Below, one piece after another: positions 32,249 to 57,464 of a stretch of 64,000 nt of DNA. Position numbers and translations under genes: made by a program. Below the pieces are notes generated by a model. That model saw only the letters and a list, made by a program, of their open reading frames with translations. It made no database searches and had not been told where the DNA came from. Origin of the DNA: Candidatus Dormiibacterota bacterium (GTDB lineage Bacteria > Chloroflexota > Dormibacteria > Aeolococcales > Aeolococcaceae); the NCBI GenBank assembly GCA_963754015.1, contig CAVWEG010000005.1:215206-279205 (forward strand), written 5' to 3'. Position 1 is the stretch's first letter, and each line of letters begins with the position of its first letter.

Positions 32249-32270
32249 CGCAGGCGGCGTGCAACAACGT

Positions 32271-35494: not shown

Positions 35495-36847
35495 CTACGA
35501 GCCAGACGGGTTGACGACCGAGCGCGCAGCCTCGAGACCGGCTTCGAGACGGGTCGTGCTGACGTCGCCCTGCGTCGGAGCGCTCTCCGTCCGGACTTGC
35601 GACGCGGGCGCCACGACCTGCGCGAGGTCGTCGCGTTCGAGGAGCCGGTAGATCTCGGCCGCGCCGGCATTGGCGGGGCGGGCAACGTCCTCGAGACCGG
35701 CTCTGGCCGCTTCGGCGCCGACGAGGAGCAGCGTCACCGCGCAGGCTTCGAGGTCATCCTGCCCCATCGAGAGCGTCACCGCCTGCTCGGCGTAGCCGAG
35801 CGCTCGCAAGAGCAGGCCGCGGCGAATCGCCACCTCGGCGAGCGCGCGCGAGCCCGCCGCTGCGAGCGGATCGAGCCCGAGGCTTCGGGAGATCACCACG
35901 CTCTCGGTGAGCCGCGACGCGGCCTCGTCGTTCGCATCGGCGATCATCGCGATCCTGCCCAGATCGTGGAGGGCTTCCGCGGCAACGGTCAGATCACCCG
36001 AACGGTGGGCGCTCTCGAGCAGCTCCTCACCGTATCGCGCGGCGGCGGCGAGGTCGTTGCGCGATCTCGCAAGACCGCTGAGCGCTGCGAGCGTCCGCTC
36101 GCGAATCTGACGATCCGCGGTGCCGCACAAGGACAGCGCCTGCTCGAGGCAGAGCTCCGCGTGGGCCACATCACCGGTCTGGAATGCCTCAGCGGCGACG
36201 TCGATGAGCAGACCGGCCGTGGCCGCGCGCAGGTCACCCCGCTGATCGCGGGCCAGCGCCTCGCCGATGTTGCGCATCGCGTGGCCGCCACGACCGGCGT
36301 CGAGCTCCACGCGCGCGAGATTGACGAGTGCCTTCGCGACGATCGCGTCGTCACCCGCGCGACGGCCGAGCTCCGCCGACTTCTCGAGGAGCGCGACAGC
36401 GGTGACCGCATCACCCGCGCGTGCGGCGTGCCGGCCCCACTCACCGGCCACGGCAGCCTGGAGGACGACGTCACCGCTGCGCTCGGCAAGGCGGAGCGCA
36501 GCCTGCCAGTACACGTCGGCGGCGCCGTTGTTGCCGCCGGAGAGCGCGGTTGCGAGATCCGACATCGCGCTCGACGCCCAGTCGGCGCGAGCGAGCGACC
36601 AGACGTTCAGTGCCCCGAGAACGTCTGCGGACGCGCCGGGAGCGTCGCCGAGCAGCTGGCGTGCGAGACCGCGTGCCAGGAGCGCCGTCCCCCGTTGCTC
36701 AGGATGCCCGTCCTCGGACAGATGGTCGAGCGCGCGGTCATACGCGGAGACCGCATCGGCGAGGCGACCCTCGCGGAGAGCGGCAGCCCCGGCTGCGAGG
36801 TCGTCCGGTCGATCCGGCTGCACTGCGGCGTTTGGTTGTAGAGACAC
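35495..36847 (-). CDS. TPR / helical-repeat protein (450 aa)
   Basis: Ala/Leu-rich repeats of about 34-40 aa (e.g. GDLTVAAEALHDLGRIAMIADANDEAASRLTESVVISRSLG). No TM segment. GTG start. Confidence 0.65.
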   Translation of the reverse strand: MSLQPNAAVQPDRPDDLAAGAAALREGRLADAVSAYDRALDHLSEDGHPEQRGTALLARGLARQLLGDAPGASADVLGALNVWSLARADWASSAMSDLATALSGGNNGAADVYWQAALRLAERSGDVVLQAAVAGEWGRHAARAGDAVTAVALLEKSAELGRRAGDDAIVAKALVNLARVELDAGRGGHAMRNIGEALARDQRGDLRAATAGLLIDVAAEAFQTGDVAHAELCLEQALSLCGTADRQIRERTLAALSGLARSRNDLAAAARYGEELLESAHRSGDLTVAAEALHDLGRIAMIADANDEAASRLTESVVISRSLGLDPLAAAGSRALAEVAIRRGLLLRALGYAEQAVTLSMGQDDLEACAVTLLLVGAEAARAGLEDVARPANAGAAEIYRLLERDDLAQVVAPASQVRTESAPTQGDVSTTRLEAGLEAARSVVNPSGS

Positions 36848-37005: not shown

Positions 37006-38391
37006 GTGGTGACTGAAGCCGTGAGCCGGGAGCTCACTCAGCCCGGTCCAGCACGCGCCCCAAGCGGCTCCGAACGACCCGCGGGGCGTCTGCCGATGCG
37101 CAGACCACGCTCCGATTCGACGAGCATGCCAACACGCGATCGCAGGGTCGGCATCGAGCGCACGATCGAGCTGAGCCGCTGGATGGTGCTCATCTTCGCC
37201 GCGGTGGCCAACAACTTCCCCGGTCTCGCGACCGGACAGTCGACGGCCGCCGTCAACCTCGTCCTCGGTAGCTGGGGCGTCTTCAACCTCGCGGCGACCG
37301 TGATGCTTCTCGCCCATCGCGTCCCCGGACGCCGCCTCCAGATCGCGACCATCGCGCTGGACCTCGCGGTCGCCAGCGGGCTCGTCTATCTCACCGGCGG
37401 CTACAACTCCGACCTCGCAGTCACGTTCTTCATCGTCGTGATCGCCAGCAGCCTGCGCTTCGGACTCGTCTCGAGCATGGCGTGCGCCGTCGTTGCCGGG
37501 CTTGCGTATTTCATCGTCGGATTCAATGTCGCAAACGGGCACCTGGACACGACGCTCGTGGACGCGCTCGTGTCGCGACTCTTCCTGCTCTTCGTTGTTG
37601 CGCTCAGCAGCAACCTGCTCGCGCGCGAGCTCGTTGGTGAACGCGACCGTCAGCTGCGCAGGTCCATCGAGCTCGAGCACGCGGCGTTCGCGGAGCTGCG
37701 TGAGGTCGATCGCATCAAGAGCGAGTTCATGATGCTTGCCTCGCACGAATTACGCACACCGCTCACGAAGATCAAGGCGTGGCTGACGTTGATGCACGAC
37801 GCCGGCGATCGACTGCCCCAGGACGCGCGTGATGAAGGCCTGCACGAGCTGCGCCTCGAGGCGGAGCATCTCGCGCGGCTCACCGACAACCTGCTCTGCA
37901 TCGCGCAGCTCGAGTCCGGCGAGATCCGGCTCAAGACAGCAGCCGTGGACCTCGAGAACGTCTTCCGCGAAGTGATCGCCCGATTCGTCGAGTCCGCCGA
38001 CCACGATCGTTTCGCGATCACCGTCGCACCCGATGCGCAACGAGTGCTCGCGGACCACGAGCGCCTCGCGCTCGTTGTCGCTTGTCTCATCGATAACGCG
38101 CTCAAGTTCTCGCCGGAGTCCGAGCCCGTGCGCGTCACCACGTATCGCGCGGTGAACAAGGTGCATGTCGAAGTCCGCGACAACGGACGGCGCATCCCTG
38201 ACAGCGACGTCGACCGTGTGTTCGCATCCTTCTATCAGGTGGAGTCGCCGTTGCTGCGCCAGCGCGGTGGGTTCGGCGTCGGCCTCTACCTCGCGCGCCA
38301 GCTCATCGAGCGTATGGGCGGGCGCATCTGGATCGACAACTCACGAGCTCGCGGCAACACGTTTGTCGTCGCGCTCCCGGTGCACGTGTGA
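37006..38391 (+). CDS. membrane sensor histidine kinase (HisKA + HATPase_c)
   Basis: About 5 TM segments, then H-box FMMLASHELRTPLTKIKAW, N-box IDNALKFSP and G2 GGFGVGLYLARQL. The start is uncertain (GTG 37006; ATG 37096 or 37126). Confidence 0.88.
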   Translation: MVTEAVSRELTQPGPARAPSGSERPAGRLPMRRPRSDSTSMPTRDRRVGIERTIELSRWMVLIFAAVANNFPGLATGQSTAAVNLVLGSWGVFNLAATVMLLAHRVPGRRLQIATIALDLAVASGLVYLTGGYNSDLAVTFFIVVIASSLRFGLVSSMACAVVAGLAYFIVGFNVANGHLDTTLVDALVSRLFLLFVVALSSNLLARELVGERDRQLRRSIELEHAAFAELREVDRIKSEFMMLASHELRTPLTKIKAWLTLMHDAGDRLPQDARDEGLHELRLEAEHLARLTDNLLCIAQLESGEIRLKTAAVDLENVFREVIARFVESADHDRFAITVAPDAQRVLADHERLALVVACLIDNALKFSPESEPVRVTTYRAVNKVHVEVRDNGRRIPDSDVDRVFASFYQVESPLLRQRGGFGVGLYLARQLIERMGGRIWIDNSRARGNTFVVALPVHV

Positions 38392-38551
38392 ACAACACGA
38401 CACGCACCGCCGCCGTTCAATCGCGCGTGTTCCGGTTGCAGACACGTAAAGACGGGCAACGCCTGCGTAACCACGGGAATCGCGTCCAGCCTGCGGTGCT
38501 ACCTTGCAGCGGTGGGCACGTTTGGTGCGCTCGACCCGAAGTGAAGGACAG

Positions 38552-39364
38552 ATGACGACGTTCACCGAATCCATCCTGGCGCCGCTCGGCCACGGAGTCG
38601 TTCGCGCTCCCGCCGAAGCGACGGTGCTGGTCATCGACGACGACCCCGCGATGCGCGACATCCTGTCGACGGTTGCGCAGCAGCACGGGTTCGGCCTGCA
38701 GTTCGCCGAGGACGGCGCTGAAGGCCTCCGTCTCGCCGAGCAGAGCGATGTCGACCTCATCCTGCTCGACCTCAGCCTCCCGGGCATGCCGGGCCTCGAC
38801 GTCTGCCGGCGCCTCCGCGGCGCAGGTGTCGAAGTGCCGATCATCATCCTGTCGGCAAGCACGGACACGGTCGACGTCGTCGTCGCCCTCGAGATCGGCG
38901 CCGACGACTACATCGCCAAACCCTTCGAGATCCGTGAGCTTGCCGCCCGCGTCAACGCGAAGCTTCGCCGGCAACGGACCTCGCAGTCGCAGGTACGCCC
39001 CGGCCGTCTGAAGTTCCCGGGCCTCATCGTCGACATCGGACGCCACGAGGTGCTCCGCGACGGCGAGTCGGTGAACCTCACCCCGACCGAGTTCGACCTG
39101 CTTGCGCTCCTCTCGGCGTCGCCGGGCCGCGTCATCTCGCGATCCGAGATGATCCAGAAGGTCTGGGGCCAGGGCGCCGACCTCGACCTGCGCAGCGTCG
39201 ATGCGCACGTCTACCGGCTGCGCCGCAAGATCGAGCCCTCCGGGCCGCGACCGACCTATATCCACGCGGTCCCGGGAATCGGCTATCGCTTCGAGCGCCG
39301 CGGCCTCAACGAACGGTTGTCGCGGAGTGCGGCCGAGTCCGAAGAGACCGGCCTAGCCAGCTGA
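38552..39364 (+). CDS. OmpR/PhoB-family DNA-binding response regulator
   Basis: REC (VLVIDDDPAMRD...DLILLDLSLPGMPG...KPF) plus a winged helix (LTPTEFDLLALLSASPGRVISRSEMIQKVWG...VYRLRRKIE...GIGYRF). ATG after GAAGGA. Confidence 0.92.
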   Translation: MTTFTESILAPLGHGVVRAPAEATVLVIDDDPAMRDILSTVAQQHGFGLQFAEDGAEGLRLAEQSDVDLILLDLSLPGMPGLDVCRRLRGAGVEVPIIILSASTDTVDVVVALEIGADDYIAKPFEIRELAARVNAKLRRQRTSQSQVRPGRLKFPGLIVDIGRHEVLRDGESVNLTPTEFDLLALLSASPGRVISRSEMIQKVWGQGADLDLRSVDAHVYRLRRKIEPSGPRPTYIHAVPGIGYRFERRGLNERLSRSAAESEETGLAS

Positions 39365-39730
39365 CTGCTGCGGGGGATGCCACTTCGGGCGGCCGTTGAG
39401 GCCGCGAGAGAAGGTTCGGCGCTGCCGCGGACCGGACTCCTCGACAAGGACGAGCTGTCCACGATCGTTGAGCGTCGCGGGCCGCGCTTCGACGATCTGC
39501 GTTCGGAGCAACGAGAGTGGACGACCGTGCGGCCGCTCGAACTCGTAGCACATCGCCTCGTGGCCGTCCCAGAGACGCCGCTTCGAGGCGCCGGTGAAGA
39601 CCGCGAGACTGCGGGTGACTCGGCGGAGCTGGGGGGTCTGCAGGCTGTACGAAATCCTGTACATCTCACCACGACGCAGCTGGAAACTCTCCACCTCTCC
39701 GTGATGGTCTGCACGCTGTGCATTCATCAT
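39353..39730 (-). CDS. hypothetical protein (125 aa)
   Basis: ORF with GC-rich third positions starting from the tandem ATG ATG at 39730/39727. No motif recognised. Its 3' end overlaps the response-regulator gene by 12 nt. Confidence 0.4.
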   Translation of the reverse strand: MMNAQRADHHGEVESFQLRRGEMYRISYSLQTPQLRRVTRSLAVFTGASKRRLWDGHEAMCYEFERPHGRPLSLLRTQIVEARPATLNDRGQLVLVEESGPRQRRTFSRGLNGRPKWHPPQQSAG

Positions 39731-39879: not shown

Positions 39880-40665
39880 GTGACCACATCCATTGCATGC
39901 GTGTCTGGAAAGGGCGGGGTGGGCAAGACCACGACCGTCATCAACCTCGGCGCCGCGCTCGCCGAGCGGGGAAAACACGTCCTGTTGGTGGACTGTGACC
40001 CGCAGTCGAACCTCACGAGTGGCGTCGGGCTCGACCCATATGACGAGCGGCCCGGGATTGCGGCCGTGATTGCGGGCAGCGTCGACGCCGGCGATGCGAT
40101 CGTCGAGACCGGGTGGCCGAACCTCTTCGTGCTTCCCGCTTCGCCGGACCTGTCCGCCGTCGAGGGCGAGCTCGCCTCCTCCATCGACAAGGAGCTCGTC
40201 CTGCGTGACGCACTCCGTCGCGACGGACGGCGCGCGACCTTCGACTACGTCCTCTTCGACACGCCGCCGAGCTTCGGGTTTCACACGATCAGCGCGCTGG
40301 CCGCGGCGGGCGAGGTGCTGATCCCGGTGCAGATGTCCGGGTTTGCGATCCGCGGACTGAAAGAGGTGCTGCGCACCGTCCACCTTGTCCGCAGCCGGCT
40401 CAATCCCGACCTCGCGATCCTCGGCATCGTCCCCACGTTCGTCAACCTGCGCACGAAGTTCAGCCGCCAGCTCCTCGACGGCCTCTGCGAGCTCGCGAAC
40501 ATTCGCGTCTTCGCGACGGTGATCACCCCGACGGTCAAGCTCCAGGAGACGTCGCTTGCGGGCATTCCCATCACCGCGTACGCCTCATCGTCCAAGGCAG
40601 CTGCCGCATATCGCGAGCTCGCCGGCGAGGTCATGACCGAGGACGAGGTGCTGGCGAGTGTCTGA
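39880..40665 (+). CDS. parA: ParA/Soj-family partition ATPase (261 aa)
   Basis: Deviant Walker [46 protein letters not shown] 39880 follows AGGGGA. Confidence 0.88.
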
Positions 40666-41335
40666 GATCGGCGAACGATCCGCCCAAGGCGCCAACGGTC
40701 CACCGCTCTCGGGTCCCATGGCGCGATGGCTGGCGCCGACATCGGAGTCACGCGTCGAGCGGATCCCCATCGACGCCGTCCACGACCGTCCATGGTGGCC
40801 GGGGAGCGACGTCGATGCCGCGACCCTCTCCGCGCTGCGCGCGAGCATCGCATCTCGCGGGATCATCGAACCCCTGCTGCTGCGGCGCCGTGGGAGCGAT
40901 CGCTTCGAGGTGGTGTGTGGCTCACGGCGGCTTCGCGCAGCTCGAGAGCTCGGCCAGACGCACATCCCGGCCATCGTGCGCGAGCTGTCCGAACGTGAAG
41001 CCCTCCTCGTCGCGGCGTGGACGACCGTCGAACGCCGCCAGCACACCGGCGATCGCACCGCGCTCAGCGAGCGACTCCTGGCGGCCGGGTTCACGCAGGA
41101 CGAGACCCGCGTGCTTGCCGACCAGCCGTCGCTCGCCGTCGGACACGCCGTCGCACAGACCGCCCCGCCGTCCTTCGTACTTCGACCCAACCCGCTGTCG
41201 CGGCCCCGGCGCTTTGCCGCGGACATCGCGTTCGACATCCCCCACGCCGAAGTCCTGCCACTCATGGCGCCAGAGGCGCTTGCGACTGCGCTCGCCGCGC
41301 TGCACGGCGTGAGCCCGGTCGCGCTGGTGCGGTGA
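40658..41335 (+). CDS. minimal ParB/Srx-fold protein (225 aa; N-terminal CTPase-type domain plus degenerate HTH, no canonical C-terminal dimerisation domain)
   Basis: [10 protein letters not shown]...[60 protein letters not shown]. The GxRRxRAA box is conserved. The GTG start overlaps the 3' end of parA (8 nt). Confidence 0.75.
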
Positions 41336-41886
41336 GCGCGGTCCCACGCCACTCGGAGGAGGAGCTGCGACAGCAGTGGGCCTTCCTTGATGCGCTGGTG
41401 GACCGGCAGGCCGCGAGTTTGAAGTCGGGCAACCAGGATCCCGAGGAGGAGGACCTCACGGTCGCCGCGACGGCGGCACCCGCCGACGGCCACTACCTGG
41501 AGGAGATCTCGGCGCTCTCCCGGCGGGTCACGACGCTCGAGGCCGAGCGCGCCACGCTGCTCCGCCGTATCGATCTCGCGGAGCAAGCACGCATGGCGGC
41601 CGAGGCGGGACGAGCGGCAGCCGAGACCGCGCGCGCAACTGCCGAACGCGCGCTGGCGGACGCTCAGGTACGGGAGCTGCAGCCACCCAAGGTCGCGCCG
41701 GCCGAGGTTGCCGCCGCTGCAAGCTCAGAGGCCCCGGTCGCCTCGGTGGCCCCAGCTCCTGTCGCGGCGCCCAAGCCCGCAGCGCCGCCGGCGCCACCCG
41801 TCGCGAAGAAGCCCGCGCCGCCGGCGCGCAAAGCCCCGGCGTCGAAGGCACGACGTCGCAGCTGGTGGCAACGCTTCAGGGAGTAG
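41332..41886 (+). CDS. coiled-coil protein with Pro/Ala-rich region and basic Trp-Trp C-terminus (184 aa)
   Basis: GTG 41332 overlaps the ParB-like stop (GTGA). Contains the heptad-like segment LEEISALSRRVTTLEAERATLLRRIDLAEQARMAAEAGRAAAETARATAERALADAQ, then PAPVAAPKPAAPPAPPVAKKPAPPARK, ending KARRRSWWQRFRE. Confidence 0.6.
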   Translation: MSAVPRHSEEELRQQWAFLDALVDRQAASLKSGNQDPEEEDLTVAATAAPADGHYLEEISALSRRVTTLEAERATLLRRIDLAEQARMAAEAGRAAAETARATAERALADAQVRELQPPKVAPAEVAAAASSEAPVASVAPAPVAAPKPAAPPAPPVAKKPAPPARKAPASKARRRSWWQRFRE

Positions 41887-42658
41887 CTGCTCCAGCAGGC
41901 CTCGGGCGCCGGCCCTGAGCCATTCCCACGAACTGGCGGAGCGCCTCCGTCGGCGACGGCCGCGTGGCGACCTCGCGGAGCAGCATCTTGCTCTCGGTCA
42001 GCAGCTCCTGGTCCGGCAGCTCGCCGCGGCCGGATGTGGCAACCACCCACCCGGGCGAGTACCAGAGGACGGTCTCGAACGCGAGGCCGCTGAGGGTGAG
42101 GCCGTTGAGGAGCGAGTCGGTGATTCGTGACAACGGCCGTTTCGCGTTGGTGACAACGATGCCCCGGATGCGATCGAGCACTTCGAGCTGTTGCGCGAGC
42201 CCGACGGTCAACGCGGCCGCGCGCAGCGACAGAATGTCGAGCGCCGTCGGGACGACGATCCGGTCGGCTGCTCCCATGGGTCCGAGCAGCGACGGTTCAT
42301 GAGGATGCGTGTCGAGCAGGATGATGTCGCAATCGTCACGAACCTCAGCGAGCATCTCCTCGAGTTGCTCCTTCGATGGCGATTCGTCGTTCAGGCTTCG
42401 ATGTGACGCAACTGTACGGATGCCGAGCGGGTGATCGATGAGCGCATCACGAAGACTGACGCGCCCGTGCAGCACGTCGATCACGGTGACGCTGCGCTTC
42501 GCCCGCTCGAGCGCATTGCTCAATCCGCCAGTCGGATCGAGGTCGATGGCGATGACTTTGAGACCACCTGCGGCCGCGGCGGCGCAGAGTGCATAGCTGG
42601 TGGTCGTCTTTCCGACACCACCTTTTAGCGACGCTATCGTGATGACTTCTGCAGGCAC
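41876..42658 (-). CDS. second ParA/MinD-family ATPase (TadZ/CpaE-like core without receiver-like domain; 260 aa)
   Basis: (V)[52 protein letters not shown] 42658 is preferred. The upstream ATG 42679 would add the rare codons TGC GGA TAT TCT. Confidence 0.8.
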   Translation of the reverse strand: MPAEVITIASLKGGVGKTTTSYALCAAAAAGGLKVIAIDLDPTGGLSNALERAKRSVTVIDVLHGRVSLRDALIDHPLGIRTVASHRSLNDESPSKEQLEEMLAEVRDDCDIILLDTHPHEPSLLGPMGAADRIVVPTALDILSLRAAALTVGLAQQLEVLDRIRGIVVTNAKRPLSRITDSLLNGLTLSGLAFETVLWYSPGWVVATSGRGELPDQELLTESKMLLREVATRPSPTEALRQFVGMAQGRRPRPAGAATP

Positions 42659-42671
42659 GTCGGTAGAATAT
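42642..42671. promoter_or_regulatory. candidate bidirectional promoter with overlapping -10 elements; both flanking genes appear leaderless
   Basis: Plus strand: ATGACT (42642-47), 16 nt, TAGAAT (42664-69), then 8 nt to ATG 42678. Minus strand: TATTCT (42670-65), then 6 nt to GTG 42658. The whole intergenic gap is 19 nt. Confidence 0.35.
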
Positions 42672-42677
42672 CCGCAC

Positions 42678-45600
42678 ATGGCCACCGCGGCGCCCCATGT
42701 CAAGCTACTGCGACAGCTTGCCAGCGCCAAAGATGATTATCTGAGTGGCGCGTTCGATATTTCCTGGGACGGCGCGAAAGCGACGCTGTACCTGGTCTTC
42801 GGGCGCCCAAGCCACGCTGTCTTCGATTCGGATCAAGCGCAGATCGAAGGGGAAGCAGCGATCGACGCGCTGCTTGCCGAACTGCCGAGAACGTTTGCCG
42901 TCTCCGACTGGAGACGCGCGATGTCGCCGCAGGAGACACTGTCGATCAGCATCGACGAGCTGGCAGGTCCCTTCGTTCGCCTTGCAGGTTCGTACGCGGA
43001 CGATCCGGTCAGCGAAGAGACCCCCGAGTGGTGGACCGCCGATGACAGTTCCCCGGATCTCGCCTTTGGTCTCAGCGACTTCCCACTCCTCCCGGGTGGT
43101 CGTCCGCTGTGGGCCGAGACATCTCCCGAAAACGTCAACCTCGCCGAACGTCTCGCTGAACTGCCGCCGTCGATCCTGATTCTCACTGGCGCGAAGCTGC
43201 GTGCTGCAGCGGTCGTCAGTGGCGGTGACCTGATCGACGCCGTCTGGATCGATGACGAGGATCAAGCCCGCGGCGAGGCTGCGGGCATGGCGTTGCTCGG
43301 TGCCACCAAAGGCTCGCTTGCCGGGTACGCCCTCGACGATCCCCGAGTTGCCGAGGCGTTGACGATGCTCTGGCGTCTTCCAGTCGCGGTCAAGGGCATC
43401 GAGATGTCGTGGCTCGACCCCGCGTCGATGCTTGCCGCGTTCCGCGCCGACGGCCTCGACCGTGTGCTCGTCATCGACGGGCCGGTACGGGGCATCGCGC
43501 TGTTCAGCCGTGGCGGCCTCGTCGCCGTGTACTCGGAGACGCAGCGATCCGCTGTCGCCTCTCCGGAGCGCCTGCGATCGCTCCTCTCGCAGGCGCGCGG
43601 GCGCTTGACCGTCATGGAGCGCAAGCCGCGCCCCGTTGCCGCAGCGGCCGCACATACCGCGCCGAGCGCCACCGACTTCTTCGGTGTCGAAGCACCCGAG
43701 GCGCCGGCCGAGGTTGCGACGAGCGATACCGACGACGCCGCCGGCGAGTCCGGTGCTGTGGCCGATACGACCGACAGCGCGGAGACCGCGACGGTGGAGG
43801 CTGAGGCCGCGACGGGCGAGGCTGAGACCGAAACCGGCGAGGCTGAGACCGAAACCGGCGAGGCTGAGACCGCGACGGGCGAGGCGGACACAACCGAGAG
43901 CGAAACCGAGACAGACACGGCTGCAACCGCCGAGCAGGCCCCTGAAGGCACCGCGAGCGAGGGGCCTGCGGCGGAACCCGTCCATGACAGCGAACCGAGC
44001 ACAACGCCGGAGGACGCGTTCGAGACCGTGGCGGCCGCTGCCGTTGATGAGCAGGCGCACGCGGACGGTGTCGCCGACGGATCGGAGCCACCACCTCCGC
44101 CGCCGCCGGATGCCGAGCACGAGCTGTCTGCGCTTGACTCGGACTTCGCTGCATCGGCCGAGCACGCGCCTCCGCCGCCCGAGGAGGACATGGCGGCATC
44201 GGCCGAGCACGCGCCTCCGCCGCCCGACGAGGACATCGCGGCATCTGTCGAGCATTCGCCTCCTCCACCCGCGCCTGACACCCCCGCAGCGCCAGACGTC
44301 AGCACCAAGCGCCCCTGGTGGGCCTTCGGTTCGAGGAAGAAGAAGGACAAGGGCGCCTCGACGGCCACCGCATCCTCTGCGACATCGCCGGAGTCGATCG
44401 CGGCGGCAGCAGCGGCTGCACACGAAGCCGAAGATGCAGCGGAGTTCGCCGGCTGGAGCGTCCGGCAGCAGAGCCCCGAACCGCAACCGGTCTGGCTTCG
44501 CCCGCGCGACGTTGCCGAGGCAACGGACGATGTCCTCTCAGACAGCGAACCGCCGCCGCCCGCCGCTGATCCCGAAGCGGAGGCACCCGCAGCTGATCCT
44601 GACGCGGAGGCACCCGCCGCTCATCCGGTAGCGGAAGCCGCAGCCGGCGAGACCGACACGGAAACCCCAGCAAGCGACGTTGAAGAGCCCGCTGCACCCG
44701 CGTCGACCTGGTCGGTGGTCGAGCCTGGGACCACCACGCTCCGAGCGGTCTCGTGGCCCTCGACATCATCTAACCCCGATGGCGCGACCGCTGATGAAGC
44801 CGGTGCTGCTGAACCTTCGACAGAACCCCAGACCGAGACCGCTGCCACGCAGGGGTGGTCCGCGCGCGACGCGTTCGCTGACTCATCTGGTTGGCATCAA
44901 CCCGCCGAAACGGTGCATCGCGAAGACGAGGCAGACGCCGCCCCCGAAGAGGCGCATGCGGTTGAAGCCGGCGGTGCACACGACGAGGCGCCTGCGCATG
45001 ACGCCGATGCCGCGCATGACGAAGGCAGCGAGGCAGCGCAGGCAGGCACCGATGAGACCGCGCACGAGACCGACGGCGACCACGAGGTGGCTGCTGAGGT
45101 CAACCACTCGGTGTCGACGTGGTTCCAGCCTGAGCATGCAACCGCAAGCGACACCGAACTGGCTGCCTCCGTGGAGGACGAGCCTGCGGACGTGACGGAA
45201 CACGATTCCTCGGCGGAAGCAGAGCCCACGCATGACTTCTGGGCAGAGTTCGCGTCGCCCGATCCCGACGCCCATGCGGACACTGGTGAAGCCGAGCCTG
45301 ACGCTCACGCCGGAACCGTGGCCGATGCCGACCCTGACGCACCCGGCGTCGAAGCACAGCCAACCGAAGAGCCGGCTTTCGTCGACCATTCCGATCTCTT
45401 CGCGCGCAAGCCGTCTGAGCGCACCTCTGCTCCATGGAGCTGGCCGCTTGCGGAAGCCGATATCGCGCCGGCCCCGGAATCGCACCCGAGTCCCGCGCCT
45501 GTCGATGAGACGCCAGAGCCGGCCACGACATCGGCCGAGACCCCGGGCGAATCCGACGACTGGGAGCCCGTGTTCGAAGGCGCCGGCGATCAGAGCTTCT

Positions 45601-45869
45601 TCCAGCGCGACGAGCCCGTCGGCTCGCAGTTCGTCGATTTCGACGAGGTGAGAACAGAGCTGGTCCAGATCGGCATCGTCTGGCTCGGTGAGACCAACGC
45701 AGTCCCTGTGACGGCGCTCCTCCGCAAGACACGGTCGACAATCGACGATTTCGTCGCCACCATCGACACGATCCGCGGCCTGCACCTCGAAGGCCAGGAC
45801 CCGGCATCGGTCCAGGCGATGGCACGCGAGATGCATCAGCAGGCTGCCGAGCGGCTGTGCGGAGCGTGA
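42678..45869 (+). CDS. 1,063-aa extremely acidic repeat protein: N-terminal DUF4388/Roadblock-like region, acidic disordered middle of about 630 aa, C-terminal helical domain of about 100 aa
   Basis: MATAAPHVKLLRQLASAKDDYLSGAFDISWDGAKATLYLVFGRPSHAVFDSDQAQIEGEAAIDALL... followed by E/D/T/A/P-rich tandem repeats and a single basic island KRPWWAFGSRKKKDKG. It ends ...VRTELVQIGIVWLGETNAVPVTALLRKTRSTIDDFVATIDTIRGLH. Confidence 0.75.
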   Translation: MATAAPHVKLLRQLASAKDDYLSGAFDISWDGAKATLYLVFGRPSHAVFDSDQAQIEGEAAIDALLAELPRTFAVSDWRRAMSPQETLSISIDELAGPFVRLAGSYADDPVSEETPEWWTADDSSPDLAFGLSDFPLLPGGRPLWAETSPENVNLAERLAELPPSILILTGAKLRAAAVVSGGDLIDAVWIDDEDQARGEAAGMALLGATKGSLAGYALDDPRVAEALTMLWRLPVAVKGIEMSWLDPASMLAAFRADGLDRVLVIDGPVRGIALFSRGGLVAVYSETQRSAVASPERLRSLLSQARGRLTVMERKPRPVAAAAAHTAPSATDFFGVEAPEAPAEVATSDTDDAAGESGAVADTTDSAETATVEAEAATGEAETETGEAETETGEAETATGEADTTESETETDTAATAEQAPEGTASEGPAAEPVHDSEPSTTPEDAFETVAAAAVDEQAHADGVADGSEPPPPPPPDAEHELSALDSDFAASAEHAPPPPEEDMAASAEHAPPPPDEDIAASVEHSPPPPAPDTPAAPDVSTKRPWWAFGSRKKKDKGASTATASSATSPESIAAAAAAAHEAEDAAEFAGWSVRQQSPEPQPVWLRPRDVAEATDDVLSDSEPPPPAADPEAEAPAADPDAEAPAAHPVAEAAAGETDTETPASDVEEPAAPASTWSVVEPGTTTLRAVSWPSTSSNPDGATADEAGAAEPSTEPQTETAATQGWSARDAFADSSGWHQPAETVHREDEADAAPEEAHAVEAGGAHDEAPAHDADAAHDEGSEAAQAGTDETAHETDGDHEVAAEVNHSVSTWFQPEHATASDTELAASVEDEPADVTEHDSSAEAEPTHDFWAEFASPDPDAHADTGEAEPDAHAGTVADADPDAPGVEAQPTEEPAFVDHSDLFARKPSERTSAPWSWPLAEADIAPAPESHPSPAPVDETPEPATTSAETPGESDDWEPVFEGAGDQSFFQRDEPVGSQFVDFDEVRTELVQIGIVWLGETNAVPVTALLRKTRSTIDDFVATIDTIRGLHLEGQDPASVQAMAREMHQQAAERLCGA
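43797..43901 (+). repeat. in-frame 21-nt tandem repeat x4-5 (GEAETET heptads)
   Basis: Units at 43797, 43818, 43839, 43860 and 43881. Units 2 and 3 are identical (GAGGCTGAGACCGAAACCGGC). Confidence 0.9.
44151..44279 (+). repeat. in-frame 45-nt tandem repeat x3 (ASAEHAPPPPEEDMA)
   Basis: 44151-44195 and 44196-44240 differ at 2 of 45 nt. The third copy (44241-44279) is degenerate. Confidence 0.9.
44565..44645 (+). repeat. in-frame 27-nt tandem repeat x3 (ADPEAEAPA)
   Basis: GCTGATCCCGAAGCGGAGGCACCCGCA / GCTGATCCTGACGCGGAGGCACCCGCC / GCTCATCCGGTAGCGGAAGCCGCAGCC. Confidence 0.85.
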
Positions 45870-45873
45870 CCCG

Positions 45874-46329
45874 GTGAGCAACCAGCTGGTGAGCTGGATC
45901 CAGAATCACTCCGTATTGATCCTGGCCGGTCTCGCCGTCGTCGAGGGCGTCATCAGCCTCTCGCTCCTCCGGATGGCCCGGCACGCTCGCCATGAGATGA
46001 AGGCCGCTCAGGCTGCCGCCATCGAAGCAGCACGCGCCGCGGCAATGGCCGCCCCCGGCGCGATCGATCCCGAAGCCGTGCTCGCGCTGCTGCGTCAGGG
46101 ACACGCCCCGACGCTCGACAACGTCTACGCGATGATGCGACGGCGCGAGGCGGAGTCGGCAGACCTGGCTGAGACCCAGGCGGCCGCCCCGGCAGCGATA
46201 CCGGCTGCCGCGCCGACGACGACGAGGCCCGGATCGCCCAAGGCCGCACAGGGGGCGACCCCCGTGGCAGCGCCCACGTCGCTCAGCAGTTCCGAAGTCG
46301 AAGAGCGCCTGCGCCAGTACGAGCGCTGA
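45874..46329 (+). CDS. small single-TM protein, Ala-rich (151 aa)
   Basis: GTG start 4 nt after the stop of the acidic protein. N-terminal TM segment VLILAGLAVVEGVISLSLL. No motif recognised. Confidence 0.45.
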   Translation: MSNQLVSWIQNHSVLILAGLAVVEGVISLSLLRMARHARHEMKAAQAAAIEAARAAAMAAPGAIDPEAVLALLRQGHAPTLDNVYAMMRRREAESADLAETQAAAPAAIPAAAPTTTRPGSPKAAQGATPVAAPTSLSSSEVEERLRQYER

Positions 46330-46335
46330 CCAACG

Positions 46336-46974
46336 CTAGCGCTTGAACTTTCTCCGCTCGAGCGAGGCGGGCCGGCCCCGCCCGCACGCCTCGGCGGCTG
46401 CGAGAAATGCCATGGCGACCGCGTCCTCACGGAGATGCGCGATCGCGTCCTCGGTCCGATGCAGCACGGCGACACTGTTGCGGATCGTCCAGCCGGAGCG
46501 ACCCGAGACGGTTGGCGGCAGCAGTGCATCCCCGGGTGTGCGCACCGACCAGCTCCGCGGTGGCGCTGAGGGCGTAGCGCTCGAGCGCACCGAGTACGGC
46601 CGCGCAGCCTCGGCAACCGCGCCGGGGCGCTGGACCTCGACGAAGAACGTGTCGGCGTCGGGGCCCGTGGTGGGCGCGACGGGCCAGAGCACTTCGGGTG
46701 CAGGCGCAGGCGCCGGCTCGGTGTACTTGGCGCCCGCAAGGGCGAAGAGCGCTGCGGCGAGGTCTTCGCCGGAGTCGAAGGCACTCCCCTCTCCGAACCA
46801 TTCCTCGTCCGGTACCTGGGCTCCTCCGTTGGATGCCACGGTCTCGGCACTTATCACAGTGAGGAGATCGTACCCGTCCGAGTTAACAACTCGTGGATGC
46901 TTCGAACGCTCGCGGAATCGAACGTGTATCGAAGCGGTTGCTCCTGAAAGATCGTCAAGCGTCAGCGCACACAA
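46336..46974 (-). CDS. hypothetical protein (212 aa as read; middle part may be frame-disturbed)
   Basis: Protein-like N- and C-terminal segments (DGYDLLTVISAETVAS...; GWTIRNSVAVLHRTEDAIAHLREDAVAMAFLAAAEA) surround a low-complexity stretch. It diverges from cpaF-1. Confidence 0.35.
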   Translation of the reverse strand: MCALTLDDLSGATASIHVRFRERSKHPRVVNSDGYDLLTVISAETVASNGGAQVPDEEWFGEGSAFDSGEDLAAALFALAGAKYTEPAPAPAPEVLWPVAPTTGPDADTFFVEVQRPGAVAEAARPYSVRSSATPSAPPRSWSVRTPGDALLPPTVSGRSGWTIRNSVAVLHRTEDAIAHLREDAVAMAFLAAAEACGRGRPASLERRKFKR

Positions 46975-47033: not shown

Positions 47034-48203
47034 GTGAGCATGGCAGCCGTCCCGCACAAGCTCGACACCCGGTACCTCGAGGCCCTCGGCCCGCTGCGTC
47101 CGCTCGTCGATGACGACAGCCTCACCGAGATCATGGTCAACGGACCGGAGATGGTCTACGTCGAGCGCAAGGGCAAGATTCTCCTCACCGACATCCGTTT
47201 CGACGATGAAGCTCACCTCATGCGGGTGATCGACACCATCGGCGCGGCAGTCGGCCGGCGCATCGACTCGCGCACACCACTGATGGATGCGCGCCTGCTT
47301 GACGGATCGCGCGTCAACGCGGCCATTCCGCCGGTCGCGCTCGACGGTCCGATTCTCACGATTCGAAAGTTCAGCAAGGATCCGTATCAGGTTTCCGACC
47401 TCATCGGCTTCGGCACGATGACGCAGGAGGCCGCCGCCTTCATCCAGGCTTGCGTGCTCGCTCGCGCGAACATCCTCGTCTCGGGTGGAACCGGTACCGG
47501 TAAGACGACACTGCTCAACGTGTGCTCGGGATTCATCCCCATCGACGAGCGCATCGTCACCATCGAGGATGCGGCTGAGCTGCAGCTGCACCAGGAACAT
47601 GTCTGCCGTCTTGAAGCGCGTCCCGCGGACGTCAACGGCGAAGGCCGTATCGCGATTCGCGAGTTGGTCATCAACTCGTTGCGTATGCGGCCGGACCGCA
47701 TCGTCGTCGGAGAGTGCCGTGGTGGTGAGGCGCTGGACATGCTCCAGGCCATGAACACCGGCCACGATGGCTCGCTGACCACCATCCATGCAAACAGCCC
47801 GCGCGAGACTCTGTCGAGGCTCGAGACCCTGGTCCTCATGGCCGGACTCGACTTGCCGCTGAAGGCGATTCGGCAGCAGATCGCAGGCGCGATCAACCTG
47901 ATCATCCAGCTCAACCGTCTCAAGGACGGATCGCGCAAGGTCGTCTCCATCACCGAAGTGATCGGTATGGAAGGCGAGATGATCACCGTGCAGGAGATCT
48001 TCAAGTTCGAATCGCGCGGCGCCGATCCGTCGACTGGAAAGATCATCGGCGACTTCGAGCCGACCGGTATCCGTCCGCGGATCATCGACAGGCTGTTCGA
48101 CATGGGCATCCCGCTGCCGCCGCGTCTGGCGCAGATCTTCCCGGACCGTCGCCAGGTTGGCGTCGCGGCCGAGAAGAACGGCCACCTCAGCGGCGTCGCT
48201 TAA
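47034..48203 (+). CDS. cpaF: CpaF/TadA-family secretion ATPase, short form (389 aa, no N-terminal helical-bundle domain)
   Basis: LTEIMVNGPEMVYVERKGK, Walker A SGGTGTGKTTLLN, TIEDAAELQL, RIVVGECRGGEALDMLQAMNTGHDGSLTTIHAN. GTG 47034 lies 9 nt after AAGGAG. Confidence 0.92.
   Translation: MSMAAVPHKLDTRYLEALGPLRPLVDDDSLTEIMVNGPEMVYVERKGKILLTDIRFDDEAHLMRVIDTIGAAVGRRIDSRTPLMDARLLDGSRVNAAIPPVALDGPILTIRKFSKDPYQVSDLIGFGTMTQEAAAFIQACVLARANILVSGGTGTGKTTLLNVCSGFIPIDERIVTIEDAAELQLHQEHVCRLEARPADVNGEGRIAIRELVINSLRMRPDRIVVGECRGGEALDMLQAMNTGHDGSLTTIHANSPRETLSRLETLVLMAGLDLPLKAIRQQIAGAINLIIQLNRLKDGSRKVVSITEVIGMEGEMITVQEIFKFESRGADPSTGKIIGDFEPTGIRPRIIDRLFDMGIPLPPRLAQIFPDRRQVGVAAEKNGHLSGVA
47665..47796 (+). repeat. 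arm 1 of an inverted near-identical segment shared by the two cpaF paralogs
   Basis: 47665-47722 is a perfect 58-nt match to the reverse complement of 49379-49436. Over 132 nt there are 8 mismatches (hand alignment). Confidence 0.85.
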
Positions 48204-48254
48204 ACCTCTCCGACAAGAGAACGTAAGCCGGCTGCCAGCCGAACAGGAGTTGTG

Positions 48255-48877
48255 ATGCGACCGAAAACGTGGCGCGCGCTCGTTCCATGCGCGGCCCTGA
48301 TCACGTTGCCGTTGCTCGCTTCGTGCGGCGCGCCGGCAAGGCCGGCCGTCGCGAACGTCGCTTCAGCGCCGAAAACCGCTCGCTACCGACGCCAACGCCA
48401 ACACCAACACCGGTTCCGGCGCCGCAGATCGGCGACGCGCTGCGTCATCGGCACGTGGACGGTCGTCAAAGCAACCCTCGCGATACCGATCCAGACGAAG
48501 GAGGGCAAGGTCGTCACGGTCAACGCCGTGGGTGGCGCCGGCATGGTCGAGCACCTCTACCCGCAACGGGACGGCCGTGCAGGACCTTGTCGAGCACGCC
48601 AATCACCGGCTCGAGCCAGGGATATCACGTCGTGATGCAGGTTTCGAGTGGCACGATGCGCTCGCCTGTGGTGTTCATGAACGGCTACGAGACCCTCGAG
48701 CCGATCGACGTCTCCGGCGCTCGCTCGACGTGTCATCAACGGCGGCCGCACCCAAGGTTGTGCCGATTGCGACCTATGGCGTCTACTGCGTACACCTGCG
48801 ACGCAACGCACGCTCACCGAGAACGACCAGAACGGCACGGTGTACACGTACTCGCGGACTTCGTCACGACACCGTAG
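48255..48877 (+). pseudogene. decayed lipoprotein gene (several frame changes)
   Basis: AGGAG Shine-Dalgarno and an ATG, with the lipobox signal peptide MRPKTWRALVPCAALITLPLLASCG. Protein-like pieces then jump between all three frames (PTPTPTPTPVPAPQIGDA; CVIGTWTVVKATLAIPIQTKEGKVVTVNAVGGAGMVEHLYP; NGTAVQDLVEHANH; GYHVVMQVSSGTMRSPVVFMNGYETLEPIDVSGA; LTENDQNGTVYTYSR). Confidence 0.65.
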
Positions 48878-48923
48878 CGTTCCCGCTGCTTTGGTGCAGC
48901 GTCGACCTCGACCGGATTCGCGC

Positions 48924-50558
48924 TTACGCGGACCCCACGCTGTCCATCACGTGGATGGGCTGGAAGATCTCCTCGGAGAGCTCCTCGCCTGATGTCGTCA
49001 AGTGCTCGAGGAATGTCGGCAGCACACCAGTCGGCATGTACGACCCGACGACCTTGCCGTCCTCATCGACGCCGACCTGCTTGTAGTTGAAGATGTCCTG
49101 CAGTTGCACTTCGTTGTTGTTGCAACCGAGCACTTCGGTGATGCTGACGATTTTGCGTGTTCCGTCGCGGAGGCGCGACTGCTGCACGACAACGTTCACC
49201 GCGGAGCCGATCTGCTCGCGAATCGCGCGTGACGGCAGCTCGGCGCCGGCCATGAGCACCAGCGTCTCGAGACGGCTGATGCAGTCGTGTGCGTTGTTTG
49301 CGTGGAGGGTCGTCAGCGACCCGTCATGGCCGGTGTTCATGGCCTGGAGCATGTCCAGCGCCTCGCCGCCACGGCACTCTCCGACGACGATGCGGTCCGG
49401 CCGCATACGCAACGAGTTGATGACCAGGTCGCGAATCGAGACGCGGCCTTTGCCTTCAACGTTTGCGGGCCGCGTTTCCAGCGTCACGACATGATCCTGC
49501 CGGAGCTGCAATTCCGCGGCATCCTCGATGGTGACGATGCGCTCGTCCTCGGGGATGAAGCTGCTCAGGATGTTGAGCGTCGTCGTCTTGCCGGAGCCGG
49601 TGCCGCCGCTGACAACGACGTTCAGCTTGCCGCGAACGCAGGCCCGAAGGAAATCGACCATGTCCTTGGTGATGGAGCCGTACTTGATCAGATCGTCGAT
49701 GGTCAGCGCTTCCTTGGCGAACTTTCGAATCGTCATGGTCGGCCCGCGCAGCGCGAGCGGCGGAATGATCACGTTGACACGGGATCCGTCCTTGAGCCGC
49801 GCGTCGACCATCGGCGACGACTCATCGACGCGCCTGCCGATGCTGGTGACGATTCGATCGATCACCTGCATCAGTTGCTGATCACTCTCGAACGATACGG
49901 GGCTCAGCGTGAGCTTGCCGTGCTGTTCGACGTAGATCTGCTTGTGGCTGTTGATCATGATTTCGGTCACTTCCTCGTTCGCGAGGAGTTCCTCGAGCGG
50001 TCCGAGTCCGAGCACGTCGTTGACGAGGATCTCGACGAGCCGCATCCGGTCCGGCCGGCTCATCGTCATGTTCTGCTCGGTGATGACGTCGTTGAGGATC
50101 TCCGAGATCCGCTGGCGAACGACCTCCGGCGGCACCGAGTTGGTGTCCTGCGCAAGCTCCTCGACGAGGCGCTGATGCACCTTGCCGCGAAGCGCGACGT
50201 GCGTGTTCGTGTGCCCGCCCATCTTGTTCAGACCGGGACGGCTCAAGCCGCCGCCGGTGCGGTTGAGCAGTGTTGGCGTGCGCGGCGCCTCGGCGGCCGG
50301 GCTCGGTCGCTCGGTCTCCGCAGGTCGGGCCGGCGCCTGCGGCGGTCGCATGGGAATCGGCGCGGGGGCCGGCTGCGGCGCCGGCGCCGGAACCGGCGCA
50401 CCGCCGTTCTGACGGGTTTGCCAGCCGGTGGGAGCGTAGCGGTCGTTATCGGGGTCTGGCGTGCGCTCCGGCGCCGGTGCCGGCGATGCCGGCGCGTGGG
50501 ATGGAGCGGGCGCGGGAGTGCCTTCTGCCTTACGCTGAACTCGGTCGAGAAGCGACAT
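48924..50558 (-). CDS. cpaF: CpaF/TadA-family secretion ATPase, long form (544 aa, Pro/Ala-rich disordered N-terminus plus helical bundle)
   Basis: MSLLDRVQRK..., VTEIMINSHKQIYVEQHGK, Walker A SGGTGSGKTTTLN, RIVVGECRGGEALDMLQAMNTGHDGSLTTLHAN. ATG 50558 preferred over GTG 50573. Confidence 0.92.
   Translation of the reverse strand: MSLLDRVQRKAEGTPAPAPSHAPASPAPAPERTPDPDNDRYAPTGWQTRQNGGAPVPAPAPQPAPAPIPMRPPQAPARPAETERPSPAAEAPRTPTLLNRTGGGLSRPGLNKMGGHTNTHVALRGKVHQRLVEELAQDTNSVPPEVVRQRISEILNDVITEQNMTMSRPDRMRLVEILVNDVLGLGPLEELLANEEVTEIMINSHKQIYVEQHGKLTLSPVSFESDQQLMQVIDRIVTSIGRRVDESSPMVDARLKDGSRVNVIIPPLALRGPTMTIRKFAKEALTIDDLIKYGSITKDMVDFLRACVRGKLNVVVSGGTGSGKTTTLNILSSFIPEDERIVTIEDAAELQLRQDHVVTLETRPANVEGKGRVSIRDLVINSLRMRPDRIVVGECRGGEALDMLQAMNTGHDGSLTTLHANNAHDCISRLETLVLMAGAELPSRAIREQIGSAVNVVVQQSRLRDGTRKIVSITEVLGCNNNEVQLQDIFNYKQVGVDEDGKVVGSYMPTGVLPTFLEHLTTSGEELSEEIFQPIHVMDSVGSA
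49305..49436 (-). repeat. arm 2 of the cpaF inverted near-identical segment
   Basis: Reverse complement aligns to 47665-47796 (see arm 1). Confidence 0.85.
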
Positions 50559-50742
50559 GAGAGCCCAGATCACCTCGTGTGATTACGATCGGATACCTGC
50601 CCGGAGGCTGAGAACTAGCATCCCCGGGATGCACGCGGAACGGTGCAACGATCCTGTCGAAGCACAGTCCCAGGGGCTCTGAGGGGATTAGATAGTGCCC
50701 GGCCGGAATCGATCGGTCGAAATTCGTGTGAAGGACTGTCAT

Positions 50743-57369: not shown

Positions 57370-57464
57370 CCGATGTGTCTCCCCTGTATGACGAGCGGTC
57401 ACAGAGTCGTTGCGCCATGGTGCCAGAGACAGGCGTCGAGGCCGACGACAATTGGCCGCAGCGC

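Follow-up and report, generated by a model that had tools for sequence, protein, structure and literature searches.

ParA/MinD ATPases are recognised by partner proteins and, to our knowledge, most orphan ParAs are so far without a known cargo. An adaptor gene is diagnostic of ParA/MinD cargo (PMC11407121), and in Tad machines the ParA/MinD-family positioner is TadZ/CpaE, which is believed to set where the secretion apparatus goes (PMC11407121). The PATAN domain of the cyanobacterial regulator PixE is, in turn, an output domain that binds the N-terminal region of the pilus motor PilB1 and the N-terminus of PilC, as shown by two-hybrid and localisation experiments (doi 10.1101/2021.06.11.447907). 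In this work, we examine a locus on contig CAVWEG010000005.1 from an uncultured Candidatus Dormibacterota bacterium, within a stretch of 64 kb analysed as a whole (‘the window’), in which the gene for an orphan ParA/MinD-type ATPase (ParA2) diverges from that of a 1,063-aa protein with putative tandem PATAN-like modules (the big protein), close to two TadA/CpaF-type ATPase genes. Combining synteny, the PixE PATAN data and the TadZ/CpaE precedent, we propose that ParA2 and the big protein could form a module that positions or regulates the Tad-like apparatus of Dormibacterota, a proposal to which we give an even chance of being right.

A conserved ParA2–big protein locus in Dormibacterota

The central features of the locus, with positions counted from the first letter of the window, are as follows.

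41876..42658, minus strand: ParA2, orphan ParA/MinD-type ATPase of 260 aa (Pfam AAA_31/CbiA/MipZ, E 5e-22)
42659..42677, no strand: 19-bp divergent intergenic region with GTAGAATAT (sequences of 13 loci compared)
42678..43712, plus strand: N-terminal ~345 aa of the big protein, three similar predicted modules (AlphaFold2 model of the orthologue P0017; module 1 PATAN/DUF4388-like)
43713..45602, plus strand: acidic, Lys/Arg-poor, disordered linker of the big protein (~630 aa) with short repeats (composition, tandem repeats)
45603..45869, plus strand: conserved C-terminal four-helix domain of the big protein, ending ...MAREMHQQAAERLCGA (invariant columns of alignment A1)
47034..48203, plus strand: TadA1, TadA/CpaF-type ATPase (Pfam T2SSE E 2.5e-61; TIGR03819 E 1e-93)
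48924..50573, minus strand: TadA2, TadA/CpaF-type ATPase with a Pro-rich N-terminal extension (T2SSE E 1.4e-66; TIGR03819 E 3.5e-98)

An earlier reading of the DNA from its letters and open reading frames alone (the sequence-only reading) had called most of these genes, which were all recovered with the same ends or ends a few codons away (Pfam, NCBIfam, open reading frame ends), and had named beforehand, as grounds for refuting it, genes that do not co-localise in relatives, which is not what the relatives show. Our synteny sample consisted of seven homologue lookups plus one genome per GTDB species (61 loci), scored by tblastn with the window's proteins, and counts below refer to loci with enough flank. 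Gene order is kept in the 61 species-level Dormibacterota genomes, and because the whole arrangement recurs in them it lies far above chance. The near-invariant order runs from a histidine kinase and a response regulator through a small gene (smA, minus strand), a second ParA (ParA1), a ParB-like gene, a putative coiled-coil gene (cc), ParA2 (minus strand), the big gene, a single-pass transmembrane protein, another small gene (smB, minus strand) and TadA1 to, further on, TadA2 (minus strand), CAP and ABC/FtsX genes.

ParA2 is present, divergent from and adjoining the big gene in all 59 testable loci, TadA1 is found in 50/50, and the big protein's C-terminal domain in 54/54. No proteins of the locus are better conserved than ParA2 (70-99% identity) and TadA1 (77-98%), and the N-terminus of the big protein falls to 44%. 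Contig CAVWRW010000011.1 (L011) is 97-99% identical across the locus. In locus L007, which shares its contig with L047, ParA2, the big gene, two tadA genes, an EAL gene, cpaB, tadB and tadC stand in one compact cluster, and L060 has cpaB and tadB within 10 kb.

ParA2 carries the deviant Walker A motif LKGGVGKTT. Its best NCBIfam model is minD_arch (E 1.4e-19), with CpaE_hom_Actino reaching merely 3.5e-5, and its closest solved structures in the PDB are MinD, Soj and FleN (E 6e-12). The C-terminus of ParA2 (41876-41950, minus strand) holds a strongly conserved P.(E/D)ALRQF(I/V).MAQGRR segment, which may form an amphipathic helix, comparable to MinD's, that targets the membrane or binds a partner.

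The gap between the GTG start of ParA2 and the ATG of the big gene measures 19 bp in 55 of 60 loci, and GTAGAATAT is conserved within it: TAGAAT ends 8 nt before the ATG, and the complementary TATTCT 6 nt before the GTG. This layout suggests candidate back-to-back -10 boxes, a putative promoter pair that would give two leaderless mRNAs and tight co-regulation of the two genes.

The big protein and its family

Alignment A1 comprises 38 sequences of the big-protein family. Full-length relatives are mostly 428-600 aa long and consist of a conserved N-terminal region of ~345 aa, a variable linker and a conserved C-terminus of ~80 aa, whose consensus end in relatives reads ...MAREMHxHAAERLCGA. An AlphaFold2 model was made on the 430-aa orthologue P0017 (58% identical), not on the window protein, and has a mean predicted local distance difference test score (pLDDT) of 86.9. 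It places three modules at residues 6-104, 140-235 and 236-316, each predicted to fold as a four-stranded beta meander with a helix before and after it, followed by a disordered stretch and then four helices at 355-427. The helical C-terminus that the sequence-only reading had assigned to the 1,063-aa open reading frame is thus reproduced as four helices over the last ~80 residues of this homologue.

Several comparisons connect the N-terminal modules to DUF4388/PATAN (PF14332, gathering score 25 bits). Sub-threshold Pfam matches to DUF4388 occur in 21 of the 38 family members (best E 7e-5), and the module consensus sequences give E 0.15 for module 1 and E 0.088 for module 3. The distant homologue P0207 has a significant DUF4388 match (E 5e-17, 62 bits) exactly where module 1 aligns (independent E, iE, 3e-6), with its later parts aligning to module 3 (iE 5e-15) and to the C-terminal domain; in P0211, a DUF4388-like stretch coincides with module 2. 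The PATAN pattern tG.L.......G.i.f..G.i..A......G..A...ll, compared as a sequence and topology pattern, is visible in LSGAFDISWDGAKATLYLVFGRPSHAVF..EGEAAIDALL and in both later modules. Comparisons between modules with hhalign gave E 0.002 for modules 2 and 3 and E 0.18 for modules 1 and 2; as only the former pair reaches E 0.002, the three-module assignment leans mainly on the predicted topology and on homologues. Taken together, these matches weakly suggest, by a transitive link, a row of tandem PATAN-like modules, of which module 1 is the best supported.

The sequence-only reading had likened the region, by eye, to both DUF4388/PATAN and Roadblock/MglB folds. The first likeness is consistent with the weak matches above. 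The second left no signal: Pfam lists nothing for Roadblock/MglB up to E 10, the modelled units run helix, four strands, helix in place of the alpha-beta-beta-alpha-beta-beta-beta topology of Roadblock, no Roadblock structure is among the PDB matches listed by Foldseek for the P0017 model, and the second and third segments resemble further copies of the first module. Beta sliding clamps, the sole Foldseek PDB matches at E <= 0.001, superpose with a TM-score of 0.09-0.12 and a root-mean-square deviation of about 19 Å; they were discarded because we read them as an artefact of three repeated alpha/beta modules. Searching PDB sequences with the A1 profile gave zero matches at E up to 10.

An exhaustive profile search groups the big-protein family into 294 cluster representatives at 50% identity. 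The family spans multiple phyla and has neither a name nor a Pfam model. Homologues of the N-terminal 345 residues come almost all from Candidatus Dormibacterota metagenome-assembled genomes (MAGs), and NCBI names the protein, where it is named at all, ‘hypothetical protein’. A literature search found no account of the locus or of a PATAN–ParA pairing.

The linker of the big protein varies among relatives. Its extreme acidity, already remarked on in the sequence-only reading, is borne out by composition: the middle 630 residues hold 24% Asp and Glu and 2.5% Lys and Arg, with a net charge of -135. Its DNA contains three short tandem arrays, and the protein sequence 13 isolated Trp residues and a single basic patch, KRPWWAFGSRKKK. 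The composition (acidic, Pro/Ala-rich, poor in Lys and Arg) is conserved in all orthologues; linker length ranges from about 20 to 650 aa, and from about 20 to 280 aa outside the window's clade. Across the 35 species of the clade whose N-terminal identity is 84% or more, whole proteins measure 707-1,094 aa, against 430-713 aa in other lineages. The 630-aa acidic middle is therefore a spacer that has expanded in one clade; a large acidic scaffold as the conserved core is not supported, and the analogy to HubP/FimV and PopZ is one of composition.

Among public sequences, every close relative of the big gene is cut short or frameshifted within the repetitive linker; frame breaks were seen in proteins P0001-P0015 and in loci L011, L017, L031, L034, L038 and L039. 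Because the gene is called as truncated ‘hypothetical proteins’, its full-length long form is under-represented in protein databases. The window's 1,063-aa open reading frame is continuous, with the conserved C-terminal domain in frame. A GW[ST][IV]R motif is common to smB and long linkers (AGWSVRQ), with 6 occurrences against 0.3 expected, and was rejected as a family feature, being present in only 3 of 47 proteins. The basic patch KRPWWAFGSRKKK resembles the C-terminus of cc, RRRSWWQRFRE (41850-41886). The GW[ST][IV]R motif and the basic patches (big protein residues 544-558 and 590-600) may be shared short linear motifs.

Tad ATPases and platform genes

Further downstream in the window lie genes of a Tad platform.

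59337-60197, plus strand: cpaB (Pfam SAF/RcpC)
about 60257-61184, plus strand: tadB (Pfam T2SSF), split over two frames
61196-62131, plus strand: tadC (Pfam T2SSF)

The presence of cpaB, tadB and tadC at 59.3-62.1 kb, as the sequence-only reading had it, is upheld by Pfam (SAF/RcpC once, T2SSF twice), and the three genes stand 10 kb from the ATPases. TadA1 most likely starts at 47034 or 47040, after AAGGAG, although its open reading frame is open from 46893. For both ATPases, TIGR03819 is the best NCBIfam model, yet their scores of 314 and 329 bits compare with a cut-off of 373.

The convergent tadA genes are separated by 720 bp (48204-48923), and by 293-4,333 bp in relatives, some of which carry REC-EAL and HisKA_3 genes in this gap. 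An open reading frame from 48252 begins with a lipoprotein-like signal (MMRPKTWRALVPCAALITLPLLASC), and the Thr-Pro repeat that would follow is in another frame; a possible lipoprotein gene at 48.25-48.9 kb thus seems to change frame. Directly upstream of cpaB, a 585-aa protein without a confident Pfam match (57375-59132) is homologous to the 349-aa product of the gene ahead of cpaB in L007's compact Tad cluster, and is probably another Tad-associated component.

Distant relatives outside Dormibacterota

Seven genomic contexts of distant big-protein family members were read, each with a reach of 10 kb. A ParA-family gene is present in 6/7, and in L073 it is again divergent and adjacent. REC-ParA genes, which have the TadZ/CpaE architecture, occur in four contexts (L072, L074, L075 and L076), T2SSE genes in two (L072 and L075), TraG-type coupling proteins in L070 and L072, and a divergent GGDEF gene in L072 and L074. 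Association with a ParA-type ATPase is the most general property of the big-protein family, and the association with TadZ-type proteins and T2SSE recurs in distant relatives. These distant members come from both low-GC and high-GC organisms, with a sortase among the neighbours. The distant relative P0203 gave zero matches by tblastn against PLSDB plasmids.

Proposed role of ParA2 and the big protein

From gene identities, domain layout, synteny and family distribution, we infer a set of interactions, a localisation and a link to piliation. ParA2 and the big protein would do the job that TadZ/CpaE does elsewhere. ATP-bound ParA2 dimers would give the spatial cue, and the PATAN modules would engage the TadA hexamer, the TadB/C platform or both, as the PixE PATAN domain binds PilB1 and PilC. 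The single-pass protein could anchor the complex at the membrane, with the upstream two-component system providing input, to which the EAL and GGDEF enzymes of cyclic di-GMP metabolism in related loci may add.

Several points weigh against this proposal. The window's 1,063-aa protein gives zero matches to Pfam or NCBIfam when searched whole, and none to Pfam as separate modules, so that its PATAN membership is transitive; the P0017 model, moreover, resembles no solved structure in the PDB by Foldseek, and the published PATAN binding concerns the type IVa motor PilB and not TadA/CpaF. ParA2, for its part, departs from TadZ/CpaE, which the sequence-only reading had named as the ParA-family localiser of Tad pili: although the deviant-Walker-A ParA/MinD domain is present, the defining receiver domain is missing (zero Pfam Response_reg matches, with the ATPase domain beginning at residue 4), and the actinobacterial CpaE homologue model TIGR03815 gives 23.1 bits, where its cut-off is 154, and ranks behind the MinD and ParA models. 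Within the window, the platform genes are distant from the ATPases, and tadB is broken, its N-terminal part lying in frame 2 (60257-60508) and its T2SSF part in frame 3 (60633-61181), either as a pseudogene or through an assembly indel error. No Flp pilin motif was found in the window, a weak negative from a single strict regular expression. Among the distant contexts, L070, L073, L074 and L076 have a ParA gene and no T2SSE within 10 kb, and L071 has neither ParA nor T2SSE, TraG-type or GGDEF genes. The Dormibacterota that carry the locus are, finally, known solely from MAGs.

The alternative that survives best takes ParA2 and the big protein for a generic ParA cargo system unrelated to pili, positioning another cytoplasmic or membrane assembly such as a division or polarity factor or a condensate that the acidic disordered protein would form, with the adjacent tadA an inherited gene order. 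Distant relatives do pair with ParA-family genes more often than with T2SSE (6/7 against 2/7), the tadB/C platform genes are non-adjacent in most Dormibacterota loci, and the big protein is a two-fold-domain protein whose linker is disordered, which it shares with McdB and PomX/Y-type partners. Against this reading, TadA1 comes after the big gene in 50/50 species, including those in which identity is down to 43-50%, the Tad cluster of L007/L047 is compact, the TadZ/CpaE architecture is seen in four of the distant relatives' ParA neighbours, and type IV pilus motors are the sole experimentally known PATAN output. We consider it an unlikely explanation.

The ParA1–ParB–cc cassette

Upstream of ParA2, three overlapping genes form a unit of their own.

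39880..40665, plus strand: ParA1, Soj-type ParA ATPase, first gene of the cassette (Pfam AAA_31/CbiA, E 3e-49)
40658..41335, plus strand: ParB-N-only protein, 225 aa (Pfam ParB_N, E 1e-18, residues 32-119, no other domain)
41332..41886, plus strand: cc, helical Pro/Ala-rich protein (orthologue comparison)

The overlaps described in the sequence-only reading are confirmed by the coordinates, at 8 nt for ParA1 and ParB, 4 nt for ParB and cc, and 11 nt for the convergent cc and ParA2. The three genes are found in 52/55, 53/56 and 54/58 loci, respectively. ParA1 has its closest solved relatives in Soj/ParA (E 1e-45 to 1e-42). The ParB-like protein aligns to residues 14-155 of T. thermophilus Spo0J and retains GxRR (GSRRLRAA) as well as a conserved ARWLAP peptide near the N-terminus. 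In place of ENLQR, it has WTTVER, so that ENxxR is lost; the position of the recognition helix (‘KARSTVANAL’ in Spo0J) is non-basic and varies between orthologues, and Pfam detects no helix-turn-helix or C-terminal dimerisation domain. A search with this protein for a canonical ParB in Dormibacterota returned, among the 120 matches listed, short orthologues throughout: these are 205-233 aa long, plus a few fragments and one fusion, and carry ParB_N only, except for one without a recorded domain. Judged by its sequence, the ParB-like protein has lost the features for centromere binding and CTP hydrolysis and looks like a ParA1 adaptor without DNA binding. Orthologues of cc share an N-terminal SEEEL..QWAFLD, a Pro/Ala-rich region and the basic-aromatic C-terminus RRRSWWQRFRE; cc has zero Pfam or NCBIfam matches, and a coiled coil is probable from its sequence.

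The cassette is missing in six fetched loci from at least four species (L003, L004 of the P0028 lineage, L007, L010, L014 and L026), which is at odds with the sequence-only scheme of two ParAs docking on one hub as a general arrangement. In all of these cassette-free loci but L007, the gene directly downstream of ParA2 is smA, in the same orientation, so the cassette looks like an insertion into an older unit of smA–ParA2 and big gene–transmembrane gene; smA may for this reason have been the original operon partner of ParA2. By homology, ParA1–ParB–cc is a Soj/Spo0J-derived accessory cassette. In most lineages, it might tie a second ATPase, of the Soj-like kind, into the same assembly, the ParB-like protein probably being the adaptor that links ParA1 to it, comparable to PadC in Myxococcus.

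On a plainer reading, 39880-41335 would be the chromosome's parAB, a partition pair whose ParB is short and which stands beside an unrelated locus by chance. The close relationship of ParA1 to solved ParA/Soj structures, the 140 residues over which the ParB-like protein aligns to Spo0J with GxRR kept, the resemblance of ARWLAP to the Soj-stimulating peptide, and the name Spo0J that some sources give the protein all speak for it. Set against these are the degenerate DNA-binding and dimerisation features described above with the loss of ENxxR, the lack of an ordinary parS beside the pair (TGTTTCACGTGAAACA is not matched within 3 mismatches in the 64 kb, which agrees with the sequence-only reading and leaves a divergent parS possible), and the absence of the cassette from six loci where the rest of the locus remains. 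The pair is, moreover, translationally coupled to cc and always placed between smA and ParA2, and the window holds rpoBC and ribosomal protein genes and not origin-region genes. A partition role therefore seems quite improbable to us.

A broader extension of the proposal is more tentative, and we rate it as doubtful. Tandem PATAN modules with a C-terminal helical domain might constitute an unrecognised, multi-phylum class of ParA/MinD partners that couples ParA to TadA/VirB11-like ATPases, in which the acidic, Trp-studded linker of the window's clade would act as a condensate-like hub that recruits a second ParA through a non-DNA-binding, ParB-fold adaptor.

Chromosomal setting and flanking genes

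The window has 66% G+C, contains a ribosomal-protein block and rpoB/rpoC at 20.4-28.2 kb, and is chromosomal; an Rfam scan of it gave zero matches. A remnant or domesticated conjugation or DNA-transfer module, type-IV-secretion-like and not an adhesive pilus, which the TadA-family ATPases, the ParA proteins and the big protein would all serve, is very unlikely here: the best NCBIfam model of both ATPases is titled ‘TadA family conjugal transfer-associated ATPase’, the family members in L070 and L072 have TraG/VirD4-type coupling proteins as neighbours and TrbL, SSB and sortase close by, and the ParA-type ATPase VirC1 is used in conjugation (PMC11407121), but both ATPases fall below the TIGR03819 cut-off, the locus keeps the same chromosomal position, from the rpoC region to the ABC/FtsX transporter, in 61 species, a relaxase, coupling protein or integrase was not found in the flanks of Dormibacterota loci, and cpaB-tadB-tadC are Tad platform genes.

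Five further genes belong to the conserved neighbourhood.

37006..38391, plus strand: sensor histidine kinase with a weak PilS-like region of six transmembrane segments (HATPase_c E 3e-25, HisKA E 2e-8)
38504..39364, plus strand: OmpR-type response regulator (Pfam Response_reg E 9e-31, Trans_reg_C E 9e-26)
39353..39730, minus strand: smA, small all-beta protein with an Arg-rich C-terminal tail (75 homologues, alignment A2)
45874..46329, plus strand: single-pass membrane protein, 151 aa (one hydrophobic segment; sequence comparison)
46336..46857, minus strand: smB, small conserved protein with an N-terminal WFGEGSAFDSGEDL and two GW[ST][IV]R motifs (sequence comparison)

The histidine kinase, whose 6TM_PilS match (E 4e-4) lies under the curated Pfam cut-off, and the response regulator are conserved upstream neighbours in 50/51 testable loci and 52/53 loci, respectively. 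Two conserved small genes, smA and smB, had been absent from the sequence-only reading. smA, present in 53/54 loci, is a conserved protein of ~110 aa with many invariant Arg, Tyr and Trp residues; AlphaFold2 predicts an all-beta fold (pLDDT 74.5), for which the Foldseek matches, of SH3/chromo-barrel or ribosomal-protein-like type, were all weak (best E 0.065). The single-pass protein (53/54 loci) has zero Pfam or NCBIfam matches and shares the motif AALAAPGGIDPE..LLR.G...TLD, which would be cytoplasmic by the topology that positive residues after the transmembrane segment suggest. smB diverges from the first tadA, occurs in 50/52 loci and has zero Pfam matches.

Upstream of the two-component system lie two polytopic membrane proteins without Pfam matches (32259-33932; about 33930-35476), together with a TPR protein encoded on the minus strand (35495-36847). 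The trio of membrane-protein pair and TPR gene is also present in the related loci L001, L005 and L008, so that the conserved neighbourhood reaches further upstream; L003 and L007 have both membrane-protein genes without the TPR gene.

Significance

ParA/MinD-type organisation of type IV filament machines is known already; what is new here, and undescribed, is the adaptor family. The locus offers a conserved ParA–partner pair that is open to testing and, for a family of about 300 sequence clusters that has no Pfam model, a first hypothesis of what its members do. If true, the proposal would join the fields of ParA/MinD systems and type IV pilus motors, studied separately until now, through a domain already shown to touch motors, and would suggest how bacteria without a canonical TadZ organise their Tad machines. 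The ParB-like protein might likewise add to the cases in which the ParB-CTPase fold serves a purpose other than chromosome segregation. The Dormibacterota, uncultured bacteria, are abundant in soil and permafrost, and their surface-attachment machinery bears on their persistence. Specialists in ParA/MinD systems and in type IV pili should find the locus of note; our reading of it builds on gene order and on weak similarity between domains, in organisms that are uncultured.

Comparison with described systems

Polar landmark proteins of the HubP/FimV and PopZ types share with the big protein a long, acidic, repeat-containing region of low complexity and a gene beside ParA-family ATPases. The 1,063-aa protein differs in having no LysM, transmembrane segment, FimV C-terminal domain or PopZ-type helices (Pfam/NCBIfam). 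The McdA–McdB and PomZ–PomXY systems are alike in setting an orphan ParA-type ATPase beside a lineage-restricted partner with intrinsically disordered regions; McdB and PomX/Y, however, have zero sequence relationship to the big protein, which has three predicted folded PATAN-like modules and a pilus-ATPase neighbourhood.

PadC of Myxococcus xanthus reportedly has a ParB/Srx-type N-terminal domain and no centromere role, and tethers ParA to a bactofilin scaffold. It may serve as an analogy for the ParB-like protein as a proposed ParA adaptor that likewise would have no role at a centromere. Unlike PadC, the ParB-like protein is a stand-alone protein of 225 aa with a degenerate helix-turn-helix and ENxxR missing, it has its own Soj-like ParA and cc, and no bactofilin is present at the locus.

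PatA-type PATAN regulators (PixE, PixG and LsiR) resemble the big protein in its PATAN-like module 1, and probably modules 2 and 3, and in the pilus-type ATPases that adjoin. In contrast to them, the big protein has no receiver domain, three tandem modules in place of one, a disordered linker and a novel C-terminal domain; the window protein's Pfam score lies below threshold, it is paired with a ParA-type ATPase, and the partner ATPases are of the TadA/CpaF type and not PilB. TadZ/CpaE differs in that ParA2 is without a receiver domain, is divergent, is separated from tadA by three other genes, and has as its obligate neighbour a PATAN-like protein not described in Tad loci. The two are alike in placing a deviant-Walker-A ParA/MinD ATPase beside a TadA/CpaF ATPase, and distant relatives of the big protein lie near REC-ParA genes.

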